Positions 5,380 through 20,000 of a DNA stretch of 20,000 nucleotides are shown piece after piece; position 1 is the first letter of the stretch; the number at the start of each line of letters is the position of its first letter. The DNA is from Chiloscyllium plagiosum (taxonomy: Eukaryota). The DNA lies in assembly GCF_004010195.1 (NCBI RefSeq), contig NC_057717.1:107378989-107398988 (forward strand). Reading direction: 5' to 3'. A program made the translations under genes and the position numbers. Below the pieces are notes generated by a model. That model was not told the DNA's origin, made no database searches, and was given only the letters and a program-made list of their open reading frames with translations.

Positions 5380-5489
5380 CCCAAAGAGACTTATACTCGA
5401 AACATTAACTCTGTTTCTCTCTTCACAGATGCTGAATTTTTCTAGCCTGTTTTTTTTAATTTCAGAGCTCCAGCGCTGTAGGATTTTGC
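5380..5489 (+). mobile_element. Old short Penelope-like terminal (pLTR) fragment
   Basis: ctcgaaacattaactctgtttctctcttcacagatgctg...tcagagctccagcgctgtag resembles the reverse complement of 8645-8735 (cgaaacgtc...gatgctg...tgatctccagcatctgcag). Confidence 0.65.
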
Positions 5490-6783: not shown

Positions 6784-7039
6784 CGCCTCAGGCAACTGAC
6801 TGTGTAGAGTTTGCACATTCTCCCAGAGTCTGCGTGGGTTTCCTCCGGGTGCTCCGGTTTCCTCCCACAGTCCAAACATGTGCAGGTTAGGTGAATTGGC
6901 CGTGCTAAATTGTCCATAGTGTTAGGTAAAAGGGGTAAATGTAGGGGAATGGGTCTGGGTGGGTTGCGCTTCGGCGGGTCGGTGTGGACTTATTGGGCCG
7001 AAGGGCCTGTTTCCACACTGTAAGTAATCTAATCTAATC
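6784..7039 (+). mobile_element. HE1 (V-SINE) element, 5'-truncated, nested in the Rex/Babar LINE
   Basis: Has the V-domain core gtttgcacattctccc...tgcgtgggtttcctccgggtgctccggtttcctcccacagtccaaa, a CR1-like 3' end gggccgaagggcctgtttccacactgta and a (taatc)3 tail. It is homologous to the full copy at 19064-19423 but lacks the tRNA head. Confidence 0.92.
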
Positions 7040-7220: not shown

Positions 7221-9870
7221 ATAGGGTTGTCATTGTACGGGATTTTAATTTTCCTAACGTAGACTGGGATTGCCAGAGTGTTAAGGGTTTAGATGGAGAG
7301 GAATTTGCTAAGTGCATTCAGGAAAGTTTCCTCAAGCAGTGTATAGAGGGTCCTACTCGGGAAGGGGCAAAACCCGACCTACTCTTGGGAAATAGGGCAG
7401 GACAGCTGACAGAGGTGACAGTGGAGGAGCACTCTGGGACCAGTGACCGTAGTTCTTTTGATTTTAAAATAGTCATGGAGAGGGACAAGACTGGTCCATA
7501 AGTTCAAGTTCTGAACTGGGACAAGGCAATTTTTGATGGAATTAGACAAGAGCTTGCAGGGGTTGATTGGAGTAGTCTGTTTGCAGGCAAAGGGACCTTT
7601 AGCAAGTGAGAGGCCTTTAAAAGTGAAATAGCTAGATTTCAAGGTCTATATGTTCCTGCAAGTGTGAAGGGCAAGGTTGACAGGAATAGGAAACTCTGGA
7701 TGACGAGAGATATTGAGACTTTGACCAGAAAAAAGGAGGCGTGGCTCAGGTACAGGCAGCTGGGTTCAAGGGAATCCCTGGAGGTCTGTAGGGAATACAG
7801 GAGGGTGAAAAGGGAATACGAGATAGCCTTGGCTGAAATGATTAGCATGAATCCAAAGAGGTACTTTAAGTATAATTAAAGGAAAAAGAATAATTAGAGA
7901 GAGAATAGGGCCCTTCAAGGACCTAAGTGTTCATGTATGTGTAGAACCACTGGGGATGGGTGAGGTTCTTAATGAATATTTCTCCTCTGTGTTTACCATG
8001 GAGAAAGACATGAAAACTTGGGGAAGTCAGTGGTGATATCTTGTGGACAGTCCATATCACAGCAGAGTAAGTGTTGGAAGTATTAGAATGTATGAACATG
8101 GATAAATCTTCTGGTCCTGACCAGATATATCCAAGAACACTGCAAAAGGCTAGAGAAGAAATTGCGACAGCCAGCGCTGATACTTTTGCATCATTGTTAG
8201 CCACGGGTGAGGTCCCAGAAGACTGGAGGGTTGTGGACGTTGTGCCATTATTCAAGAAGGGCTGCAAAGAAAAGCCTGGGAACTATAGACCAGTAAGCAT
8301 AACATCTGTGGTGGGTAAGTTACTTGAGAAAATTTTGAGGGATAAGATATACATGCATTTAGAAAGACAATATTTGATTAGGAGTGGTCAGCATGGATTT
8401 GTGAGTGGGAGATCATGCCTCACAAATTTGTTTAATTCTTTGGTGAAGTGACTAGGAAGGTTGATGACAGCAGGGCAGTAGACATAGTCTATAAGGATTT
8501 GAGTAAGGCCTTTGATAAGGTTCCACATGGTAGGCTGTTCTGGAAGGTTAGATCGCATGGAATCCAGGGCAAGCTGGCAAATTGGATAAAAAATTTGGCT
8601 TAATGGTAGGAAGCAGAGTGTAATAATAAAAGGAGAAAGTGAGGTCTGCAGATGCTGGAGATCAGAGCTGAAAATGTGTTGCTGGAAAAGCGCAGCAGGT
8701 CAGGCAGCATCCAGGGAACAGGAGAATCGACGTTTCGGGCATAAGAAGGGCTTATCGATTCTCCTGTTCCCTGGATGCTGCCTGACCTGCTGCGCTTTTC
8801 CAGCAACACATTTTCAGCTGTAATAATAAAAGGGTGATTGTTGGACTGGAGGCTTGTGACTAGTGGAGTGCCTCAAGGGTCAGTGCTGGGCCGATTACTC
8901 TTTCTTAACTACTGTATATCACCGATTTGGATGAGAATGTATAAGGCATGATTAGTAAGTTCACTGATAACGCTAAAATAGGTGGTATCATGGGCAGTGA
9001 GGAAGGCTATCAGAAATTGCAGCAAGACCTTGATCAACTGGGAAGTGGGCCAAGAAATGGCAAATGGAGTTTAATATAGATTAAGATGAAGTCTTGTATT
9101 TTGGAAAGTCAAATCAAGGTAAGAGTTTCATGGTGAATGGTAGGGTCTTAAAGAGTGTAGTGGAACAAAAGGATCTTGGAGTAGAGGTTCACAGTTCTCT
9201 GAAAGTGGGGTCACAGCTAGATAGGGCAGTGAAAAAGGCTTTTGGCACACTAGCCTTCATCAGTCAGGGCATTGAGTACAGAAGTTACGTTGCAGTTATA
9301 CAGGACATTGGTGAGGTATCACTTGGAGTATTGTGTTCAGTTTTGGTCACCTTGTTAATAGGAAGAATGTTATTATCTGGAAAGAGTTCTGAAGATATTT
9401 ACAAGGATGTTGCCAGGACTCCATGGTTTGTGTTATAGAGAGAGGTTGGATAAGCTAGGACTTTTTTCTTTGGAGCGTGGGAGACTGAGGGGGATCTTAT
9501 AGAGATGTATAAGACTATGAGAGGCATGGATAGGGTGAATGTACTCAGTCCTTTTCCCAGGGTTGGGGAATTGAGGACTAGAGGGCATCAGTTTAAGGTT
9601 AGGGGGGAAAGAATAGAAGGCAACCTGAGGGGCAACTGTTTTACACAGAGGGTGGTATGCATATGGAATGAGCTGCCAGTGGAAATGGTTGAGATGGATA
9701 CACTAACAACATTTAAAAGGCATTTGGACAAATACATGGATAGGAAAGGATTAGAAGGATATGGACCAAGTGCAGGGAAATGGAGTTAGTGTGGATGGAT
9801 ATTTTGAACAACATGGTCTAGTTTGGACCAAAGAGTCTGTATCTGTACTGTAGGACTCTATGACTCTATA
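7221..9870 (+). mobile_element. CR1/HER1 LINE, 5'-truncated in the endonuclease, with complete RT region and 3' tail; dead
   Basis: Starts RVVIVRDFNFPNVDW. Contains DKSSGPDQIYPRTL...GEVPEDWRVVDVVPLFKKG..EKPGNYRPVSITSVVGKLLEKI...QHGFVSGRSCLTNL, DLSKAFDKVPH, SGVPQGSVLGP, and the C-terminal FTQRVVCIWNELP...FKRHLDKYM. The tail is (gactctat)2 at 9854-9869. Multiple stops and frameshifts. Confidence 0.95.
8634..8818. mobile_element. Young palindromic, non-autonomous Penelope-like-derived insertion within the CR1
   Basis: A 15-bp direct repeat tgtaataataaaagg sits at 8619-8633 and 8819-8833, offset by exactly 200 bp. A perfect 65-bp inverted repeat spans 8666-8730 / 8755-8819 around a 24-nt loop. 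CpGs are retained, and the CR1 reads through when the insert is removed. Confidence 0.85.
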
Positions 9871-10006
9871 AGGAAGGCTATCAGAAATTGCAGCAAGATG
9901 TTAATCAGCTGGGGAAGTGGCCAAGCAATGGCAAATGGAGTTTAATAAAGGTAAAGGTGAAGTCTTGCATTTTGGAAAGTCAAATCAAGGTATGAGTTTC
10001 ATGGTG
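9871..10006 (+). repeat. 136-bp duplicate of CR1 interior 9000-9135 placed directly after the CR1 3' tail
   Basis: Hand alignment of aggaaggctatcagaaattgcagcaaga...gagtttcatggtg between the two copies gives about 11 substitutions and 2 single-base indels (~90% identity). Confidence 0.92.
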
Positions 10007-11645: not shown

Positions 11646-11752
11646 CAGGGACTGTGCATGGTCACTTCGACCAATACTACTATCATGGATAAATATACCT
11701 GAAACAAGCAAATTGATGAGTAGGAGATCAAGTATTTTCTCTCTGCAACACT

Positions 11753-11938
11753 ACTTCAACTCCCCCTCCCACTGCCAACCACTTCAACTCCCCCTCCCAC
11801 TCCACCAAGGACATGCAAGTCCTGGGCCTCCTCAATCATAAAATCCAAGCTACCTGATGACAGGAGGAAGAACGCCTCATCTTTCGTTTCGGGACCCTTC
11901 AACCACACAGCATCAACACTGACTTCATTAGTTTCCAA
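11753..11938 (+). mobile_element. Penelope-like element ORF C-terminal fragment (end of the GIY-YIG endonuclease region)
   Basis: Translates ANHFNSPSHSTKDMQVLGLL, then a frameshift, then EEERLIFRFGTLQPHSINTDFISF. This fits the HF...H...E..I..LxTL.P.GxN signature of PLE GIY-YIG C-termini. Confidence 0.8.
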
Positions 11939-15994: not shown

Positions 15995-16343
15995 TGATGT
16001 GGAGGAGTCAGTGTCGGACTGGGGTGGACAAAGTTAAAAATGACAGAACACCAGGTTATAGTCCAATAGGTTTATTTGGAAGCACTAACACTTGGAGCGC
16101 TACTCCTTCATCAATTGGTTGTGGAGCATAAGATCATAAGACACAGAATTTACAGTGAAAGATTACCATGTCATGCAACTGGAATGATATATAGAACAAA
16201 CCTGGATTGTTGTTTAAATCTTTCATCTTTTAGAATGGGTTGCAGGTTTTGGTTCATTAATATGTAAATTCCAGAGCTTCATTTAAGTCACCTTCTCGAG
16301 ATAACTTAAGGTTTTATAACAAAAGGTAACATCTCAGCTCAGA
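15995..16343 (-). mobile_element. Penelope-like terminal repeat of a second family
   Basis: Recognised shark PLE-type end (ggactggggtggacaaagttaaaaat...caccaggttatagtccaataggttt). The minus strand carries a degenerate hammerhead TTGATGA-a-GGAGT-agc-GCTCC-aagtgtta at ~16085-16115. Family assignment is from memory. Confidence 0.6.
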
Positions 16344-19063: not shown

Positions 19064-19423
19064 CATAGAAGAAATCATAGAATCCCTACAATATGGAACA
19101 GAATACTTGACCCAACAAGTCCACATCAACCCTCCGAAGACTATCCCACCCAGACCCATTCCCCTACCCTAATACTCAACAGTTCCCATGACCAATGCAC
19201 CTAACCTACACATCCCTGAACACTATGGGTGATTTACCATGGCCAATTCACCTAAATTGCACATCTTTGGACTGTGGGAGGAAACCAGAGCACCAGGAGG
19301 AAACTCACGCAGACACGGGAGAATGTGCAAACTGCACATAGACAGTCATCCAAGGCTGGAATCAAACCCGGGTCCCTGGTGCTGTGAGGCAGCAGTGCTA
19401 ACCACTGAGCGACCGTGCTGCCC
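19064..19423 (-). mobile_element. Full-length HE1 (V-SINE), tRNA-derived
   Basis: Minus strand begins gggcagcacggtcgctcagtggttagcactgctgcctcacagcaccagggacccgggtttgattcc (A and B boxes), followed by the V-domain, a CR1-like 3' end and a gattctatg-type tail. Confidence 0.93.
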
Positions 19424-19699: not shown

Positions 19700-19812
19700 T
19701 GTGGACAGTGGTGTGAACTCGCTATCATAAGGGCTAGCTAATTTGAACATCTTAAATTTATTCAAGGGGAAGTTGGATAAATATATAAGAGAGAATTGAA
19801 TTTGAAGTATCT
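19700..19812 (+). mobile_element. Highly diverged CR1-type 3' fragment
   Basis: gtgaactcgctatcata...ttcaaggggaagttggataaatatataagagagaa encodes the NSL...FKGKLDKYIRE C-terminal motif. Confidence 0.6.
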
Positions 19813-19814
19813 TA

Positions 19815-20000
19815 GCGAGTTTTGAGAAGATTTGTGACTCAGATTGAGGTTTTGGATGTAGATTTGCTCGCTGAGCTGAAAGATTCATTTCTTGACATTT
19901 CATTACCTTATTAATTAACATCTTCAGTGGACCTCATGCGAAGCAATGCTGAAAATTCCTGCTTTCTATTTATAGAAAGAAACCCAAACATATAAAGTAG
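19815..20000. mobile_element. Penelope-like terminal repeat of a third family, apparently folding back near 19975 and running off the window
   Basis: gagaagatttgtgactcagattgagg...ttgctcgctgagctg...gacatttcattacc...aacatcttcagtgg carries a hammerhead-like core on the minus strand. ctatttata (19966-19974) is mirrored by tataaagtag (19991-20000). Confidence 0.65.
19894..19930 (-). ncRNA. Minimal hammerhead-ribozyme relic (core present, helices decayed)
   Basis: Minus strand reads cca-CUGAAGA-u-guua-(auuaauaagg)-uaau-GAAA-u-GUC. The CUGANGA, GAAA and NUH elements are in the correct order. Helix II is weak, and helix I and the palindromic ACGU helix III are damaged. Confidence 0.5.

Follow-up and report, generated by a model that had tools for sequence, protein, structure and literature searches.

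Complex insertions of EN+ Penelope-like elements (PLEs) consist of copies placed head to head, of which the inverted copy is the shorter one, enclosed by a target-site duplication (TSD) (Arkhipova et al. 2013, PMC3846280; Craig et al. 2021, PMC8557442). In the accessible portions of this literature, a tail of 30-40 bp at one end is a further feature of PLE insertions (PMC8557442, PMC3846280, PMC11167929). The insertion described here lies in a window of 20 kb (the whole stretch of DNA that was analysed) and has the same head-to-head copies, shorter inverted copy and TSD. Its tail is likewise one-sided, 32-34 nt against 31 bp in Adineta Pen2a. By contrast, it consists of two pLTR ends only, with no ORF; its TSD, at 11-15 nt, is longer than the 8-10 bp of the Adineta examples; and its junction is asymmetric, with a microhomology and a second deletion and no palindrome. 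As one of very many ORF-less PLE stubs it matters little by itself. It is a clean data point on a question that the available text of PMC8557442 and PMC11167929 names, the origin of inverted, tailed PLE insertions.

A second point of reference is PAc, the Poseidon PLE of Anolis carolinensis, which was studied in vitro (Frangieh et al. 2024, PMC11167929). According to the sections of that study available to us, the PLE protein of the lizard nicks both target strands and extends them, favours AT-rich DNA and works on uncleaved RNA, and two reverse-transcription start sites define the PLE tail. Our stub appears to share the tail-defining start sites and the AT-rich target, and under the mechanism proposed below it would also share the extension of both strands and an uncleaved hammerhead in the template. 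It differs in that PAc starts 111-118 nt into its ORF, whereas no long ORF lies behind the hammerhead of the stub. The same sections do not derive inverted copies from dual priming (PMC11167929).

Our literature search, which covered few subscription papers, found no twin-priming account of inverted PLE copies, so that such an account may already be published. The 5' inversions of L1 arise by twin priming, in which a staggered cut gives two primers and two cDNAs are joined via microhomology. The mechanism proposed below resembles this, except that the joined parts of an L1 inversion come from one RNA and do not overlap, whereas here one segment has been copied twice, so that two RNAs or a tandem RNA would be needed.

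The minimal hammerhead ribozymes (min-HHRs) of PMC4209133 are inactive as monomers and weak as dimers. In the text available from that source, opposite-strand pairs 100-700 bp apart have already been noted, and most occurrences are single motifs from truncated PLEs. The motif of the present family has the same CUGANGA, extra nucleotide before helix II, G10.1-C11.1, palindromic 15.2-16.2 and short helix I. It differs in its helix II, which is 4 bp long against 7-8 bp in the Schistosoma families (PMC4209133), and in this particular copy, unlike the described min-HHRs, both cores are broken. Non-LTR retrozymes, which have been reported in one cartilaginous fish, are also ORF-less, related to PLE pLTRs and furnished with a type I hammerhead, but they form head-to-tail tandems with intact ribozymes, whereas the stub is head-to-head with none intact (bioRxiv 10.64898/2026.07.22.740005, as far as its accessible text goes). 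We rejected a non-LTR retrozyme because the insertion holds no head-to-tail tandem of at least two units with complete hammerheads. The accessible part of PMC6155905 does not cover sharks.

Anatomy of the insertion and its target site

The centre of the insertion is a hairpin whose arms, at 8666-8730 and 8755-8819, are reverse-complementary at 65 of 65 positions, with pairing ending beyond the arms at both sides. No other perfect inverted repeat of at least 11 bp with a spacer not exceeding 200 nt exists in the 20-kb window, nor does a second copy of the hairpin. The left arm is a pLTR end segment with its element sense on the minus strand; it holds U16.1 (8730) and C17 (8729), and the nominal hammerhead cleavage site falls between 8729 and 8728 on the same strand. 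The right arm is a second pLTR end segment with its element sense on the plus strand and without a tail. Unpaired bases are found on the left side only, 32 of them (8634-8665, minus strand), where they form a 3' extension of the left copy. Folding gave -149.9 kcal/mol for the RNA (z = -19, with 0 of 200 shuffles equally stable) and -90.5 kcal/mol for the DNA. Together with the complete pairing, the RNA value agrees with the proposal of an earlier note, made from the letters alone, that a 65-bp stem would form upon transcription. The perfect arms and the partnerless stretch of about 32 bp had been read correctly in that note, as had the conclusion that this is not a TIR-type MITE, a candidate that we reject for its 32 unpaired nucleotides at the left end and its TSD of 11-15 nt.

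Rfam gave no match at gathering score. Only generic miRNA-hairpin models came up, the best with 52 bits where 97 are needed; no hammerhead model was among the five matches with E up to 1. We rejected a miRNA precursor. The plus strand of the insert is also open at 8617-8823, a frame of 62 codons that continues in frame from the codons of the host LINE. This frame matched no Pfam family, a comparison with longer proteins gave three candidates and no match, and a profile-free search of cluster representatives returned two matches, both to unrelated repetitive proteins. It is probably a coincidence, and the insert proved ORF-less, as had been claimed.

The hairpin is flanked by identical 15-mers at 8619-8633 and 8819-8833 (both given on the plus strand), again as first described. 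Among exact 15-mer repeats no more than 400 nt apart, the window holds just one other, a small duplication at 11753/11781. The surrounding host is a decayed LINE comprising ORF2 and the 3' end (7230-9870, plus strand, approximate boundaries), which we take to be of the CR1 type by its motifs and not by a library match. Deleting the insert and one 15-mer in silico left the reverse-transcriptase frame of this LINE continuous, with a single in-frame stop. Since the host frame closes over the empty site, the 15-mer duplication is a real TSD. Its A+T content is 80%, against 59% across the window. The last three nucleotides of the first 15-mer (AGG, 8631-8633) also fit the usual family end, and T8819 is common to the right arm and the second 15-mer; because these letters may belong to element or target, the true stagger is 11-15 nt and not necessarily 15. 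Thus, of the 15-bp TSD that had been proposed, the identity of the 15-mers stands and the exact stagger is not fixed.

The decay of the host, which the earlier note had also seen, is borne out by Pfam RVT_1 matches below cut-off (E 0.06 and 0.0013). The host LINE is 71-91% identical to other copies in the window and carries many private changes relative to paralogues in public runs. Directly behind its 3' end, at 9871-10006, lies a 136-bp copy that is 89% identical to 9000-9135 of the same LINE.

Family copies in public reads and the PLE tail

Of 24 public runs, four were aligned to 8200-9250 at 92% likeness: three DNA contig sets, two from organism A and one from organism B, and one RNA run (X21) from organism A. 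Three flank pieces of 77-92 nt from organism A are identical to the window, and one piece from organism B differs at 1 of 92 positions; by these matches A is the same species as the window or one very close to it, and B is a near relative. Each DNA run contributed 39,072-61,564 aligned contigs, a figure that takes in CR1 paralogues. Over 8632-8739 the depths add up to about 5-9 million, whereas flank pieces identical to the window reach 10-15; the ratio is not a copy number but shows that the stub family is extremely abundant. Elsewhere, a 20-nt arm pattern had 17 matches in metagenome contigs, all due to chance and 20-26 nt long, and 0 matches in viral contigs.

The ends of the family can be read from these alignments. 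Heterogeneous flanks pile up before 8631, in at least 164, 143 and 127 contigs of the DNA runs X1, X4 and X9, respectively, and in at least 414 reads of X21; they pile up again before 8665, in at least 69 contigs of X1 and 71 of X9. Two common ends, 34 nt apart, thus emerge for the family; the left copy uses the outer one, while the right copy falls short of the inner one by 1-2 nt. Because the 32 unpaired bases lie between these two recurring ends, they are the known PLE 'tail'; the earlier note was right about their presence, and they are not the oddity it saw in them.

Several marks of EN+ PLE insertions are found here: an inverted truncated copy beside a pLTR end, a one-sided tail in the 30-40-bp range, a short TSD at an AT-rich site and, at family level, a terminal repeat with a minimal hammerhead, which is broken in this copy. 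The insert is very probably a stub of an abundant PLE family, and this much is common to the readings by dual priming, by trimming and by unit copying that are weighed below. The PLE-type origin given in the earlier note is likewise favoured by the tail, the TSD, the head-to-head layout and, at family level, the minimal hammerhead. The insert is a real, ordinary example of the published 'inverted pLTR + tail + TSD' layout, cut to two ends. As for a connection with PLE proteins, the loose ends of family copies reach 30 nt only, protein searches with the insert frame gave no relative, and a PLE ORF relic in the window is unlinked.

That relic, at 11749-11923 on the plus strand and 3 kb from the insert, is what decay has left of the C-terminal end of a PLE ORF for a GIY-YIG endonuclease; two in-frame stops interrupt it, and it contains a local duplication spaced by 28 bp. 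At 11774-11923 it is 66-74% identical to PLE-type proteins of Chiloscyllium punctatum (bamboo shark), which marks the genome as shark-like. These proteins have sub-threshold GIY-YIG matches, one of them also with a reverse-transcriptase match. The relic belongs to a separate, unlinked copy.

The hammerhead and the head-to-head junction

The left copy is family-like up to 8745. Its part of the hammerhead, the 3' half at 8731-8745 (minus strand), comprises loop II, the 3' strand of helix II, GAAAC and G16.2. Other copies of the family run past 8745 as CCCTTCTTCAGGAAT (at least 34 contigs of X1 and 257 RNA reads of X21), and its reverse complement supplies the missing CTG, so that the CTGAAGA core is present in other copies. 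The motif thus rebuilt for the family consists of CUGAAGA, an extra A, a 4-bp helix II opening with G-C, GAAAC, the palindromic ACGU and GUC, with a helix I of four positions that includes one U-U mismatch. The minimal hammerhead that the earlier note had reconstructed from the two strands of the loop passed this check of the consensus. In the copy itself CTGANGA is on neither strand and GAAAC on the minus strand only, just as that note had read the loop, and the absence of CTGANGA means that this copy is not a working ribozyme. We therefore rejected an active hammerhead here, the core being broken on both strands. The ends of X21 reads form no pile-up, and the library, fragmented and from single cells, is incapable of showing one. 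At 8726, a change of A to T reaches about 8-9% of depth in organism A and 0.1% in B; it would pair the U-U mismatch of helix I.

The right copy may begin as early as 8743, which leaves a 3-nt microhomology, AAG at 8743-8745, that can be assigned equally to either copy (strand unassigned). The chance of at least 3 nt of microhomology at a random junction is about 0.05. From 8746 to 8755 (plus strand) the right copy contributes the 5' part of a hammerhead, namely the end of the core, the 5' strand of helix II and loop II; it then loses 11 nt, with a 1-nt microhomology, and picks up again at the cleavage position, C17. A template for 8746-8754 is missing from the left copy, so a self-folding cDNA could have produced this loop only with the help of a later deletion. 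Plain self-primed fold-back was therefore rejected, since the loop needs two templates or a later deletion. Of the routes that the earlier note had offered, fold-back, template switching or trimming, plain fold-back thus falls, and trimming of a longer palindrome is kept as a rival.

The junction is one of many in the family. Among the 15 joints listed, 12 connect the left arm or loop to the right arm, every one at a different pair of places, and the remaining three involve CR1 flank sequence, with short joint sides of 20-27 nt. Junctions thus appear to form afresh with each insertion, and the frequency and variability of head-to-head joints near the hammerhead argue against a hairpin copied as a unit. 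Such copying, in which PLE proteins would move the whole 185-nt hairpin with its loop as a small non-autonomous element, strikes us as improbable. Non-autonomous PLE derivatives do exist (bioRxiv 10.64898/2026.07.22.740005; PMC8557442, in the text available from each), and one copy of organism B has a similar loop fragment, AAGGGCTTA, between two jumps (8737 to 8780). Against this stand the 12 listed joints, all different, the window without a second copy, and a ribozyme core destroyed on both strands. The earlier note had called the insert a recently active derivative of a PLE, but no sign was seen that the hairpin moves as a unit in itself, and the insert is most likely a one-off insertion product and not a member of a hairpin family.

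We probed in the same alignments for the exact loop of the 8731-8754 region, which is absent among the rows listed from the four runs (most pieces are unlisted). This absence would fit an artefact of assembly or sequencing at a palindrome, affecting the loop or the second arm, and some sequencers are troubled by palindromes (PMC8701086, in its accessible part). Yet the TSD closes the host reading frame exactly, the loop resolves into family sequence with microhomologies, and comparable junctions occur in contigs of three independent runs, and we consider an artefact very improbable.

How, then, could such a junction arise? The reading that we favour, at slightly better than even chance, is a one-off, 5'-truncated PLE product in which both nicks primed, the two transcripts met in the hammerhead, and a 3-nt microhomology joined them, with a skip of 11 nt. 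The PLE endonuclease would first have cut both strands of the AT-rich site with a stagger of 11-15 nt, as the TSD suggests. The top-strand nick would then have primed a reverse transcript at the outer start site, tail included and aided by pairing of 3 nt, and the bottom-strand nick another at the inner start site, without the tail, the templates being either two RNAs or one tandem RNA. Both transcripts would have entered an uncleaved hammerhead, where the second skipped 11 nt, and their 3' ends would finally have annealed through AAG/CTT before the gaps were filled. The starting points for this account can be seen directly, namely the anatomy, the family membership, the two ends, the junction, the deletion and the lack of a plain fold-back; from these we infer the order of events and the priming on both strands. 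In favour of this account, both outer ends of the insert lie at the two recurring family ends, and the lizard protein acts on both strands from two start sites (PMC11167929). The inner family end could be a site of endonuclease resolution instead of a priming site, following the available text of PMC8557442. A weak point of dual priming is that the microhomologies are short, one of 3 nt (p about 0.05) and one of 1 nt.

Another weak point is that later trimming of a longer palindrome can yield the same end product. The same PLE stub would then have been inserted as a longer, near-perfect palindrome, made by self-priming or when synthesis switched to its own cDNA or to an antisense template, and would later have been trimmed by breakage of a hairpin or cruciform and microhomology repair. 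We regard this course of events as possible, if on the doubtful side. Restoring the 11 nt gives arms of 80 bp and a loop of 5 nt, an unstable structure, and in mammalian cells palindromes are commonly stabilised by small asymmetric deletions, according to the portion of PMC8701086 available; palindromes at inverted PLE junctions have been interpreted as self-priming on an antisense template (PMC3846280, likewise in part). However, the 11-nt loss lies 5 nt past the tip and spares the tip itself, so two separate events would be needed. It also ends exactly at the hammerhead cleavage position, pointing to a cause at the level of RNA, and the end of the short arm lies at one of the recurring family ends.

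More tentatively, and with somewhat less than even confidence, we propose that the junction preserves in the genome an event of target-primed reverse transcription by a PLE on both strands, in which the two nicks used one start site with the tail and one without it, and the two cDNAs met by microhomology in an uncleaved hammerhead. If this is true, head-to-head PLE copies would be explained without invoking antisense self-priming. Where very many such stubs exist in one genome, junction statistics alone would separate dual priming from self-priming.

Age, transcripts and neighbouring repeats

The insertion had been called very young in the earlier note. Zero differences in 80 pairs are compatible with a pairwise divergence of up to 3.7% (95% bound), and the rate given for the epaulette shark is 7e-10 per generation (PMC10587355, in the text available). 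At that rate 3.7% corresponds to about 26 million generations, so identity alone is not proof of a very young age. What speaks for recency is the subfamily letters. The window letters T8645 and G8714 account for at most about 37-42% and 51-52% of depth, respectively, in organism A, and for 7% and 4% in B. In contrast to the host LINE, the insert has, among the positions listed, none at which nearly all other copies differ, although the likeness filter favours similar copies. Compared at the level of letters, these patterns suggest that the insert belongs to a lineage-specific expansion. An orthologous site, filled or empty, is not among the alignment rows listed; the only listed joint across the insert (8625 to 8838) has 12 other letters and derives from CR1 paralogues.

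For X21, about 2% of the run was read and 1,653 reads aligned, nearly all of them continuing into other loci, and nothing links them with this one. Among the reads in the orientation of element-sense RNA, plus-strand T>C changes (A>G in the RNA) are found at 8662 (169/676), 8677 (65/500) and 8700 (61/458), and at two positions of the hammerhead core, 8733 (A15.1, 57/356) and 8734 (A14, 47/347), where they reach 14-16%. Of the 19 adenosines on the sense strand of 8634-8745, these sites make up five. At the same sites, the DNA of X1 has 0.02-1.7% and the opposite read orientation 1-4%, with no more than 0.4% in DNA at 8733-8734. Against editing, other changes are enriched in X21 too, at 8668 (C>T, 173/608), 8712 and 8793 (both C>A), 8783 (T>A) and 8806 (A>C). 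The count at 8662 matches one group of 166 reads with a common flank, and the DNA runs come from other individuals. We take this as a hint that family transcripts are A-to-I edited at A14 and A15.1 of the hammerhead, a signal not separable from expressed paralogues. Heavy A-to-I editing is known for Penelope in a lizard and for a palindromic repeat in a frog (PMC5625713, in its accessible part). With neither an intact ribozyme nor an ORF, the copy has one likely activity, a passive one: it would form a dsRNA stem if read through. More generally, stubs of this kind amount to ready-made dsRNA hairpins.

The window also holds other repeats. Two old, decayed pieces at 2058-2140 and 5385-5480 (both noted on the plus strand) resemble, by eye, a pLTR end of this kind, one in each orientation, and the piece at 5385-5480 keeps a CGAAAC-like core. 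The end of another hammerhead-type repeat lies at 15998-16125, where the minus strand reads as a decayed TGATGA followed by helix II and a core motif; we presume that it represents a second hammerhead-type family. At 19800-19950 is the end of a third such family; on its minus strand CTGAAGA is preserved, and behind it come a decayed helix II and GAAA. Finally, 6795-7022 and 19111-19346 form an inverted pair of a SINE-like repeat, 85-87% alike, with a CR1-type 3' end.
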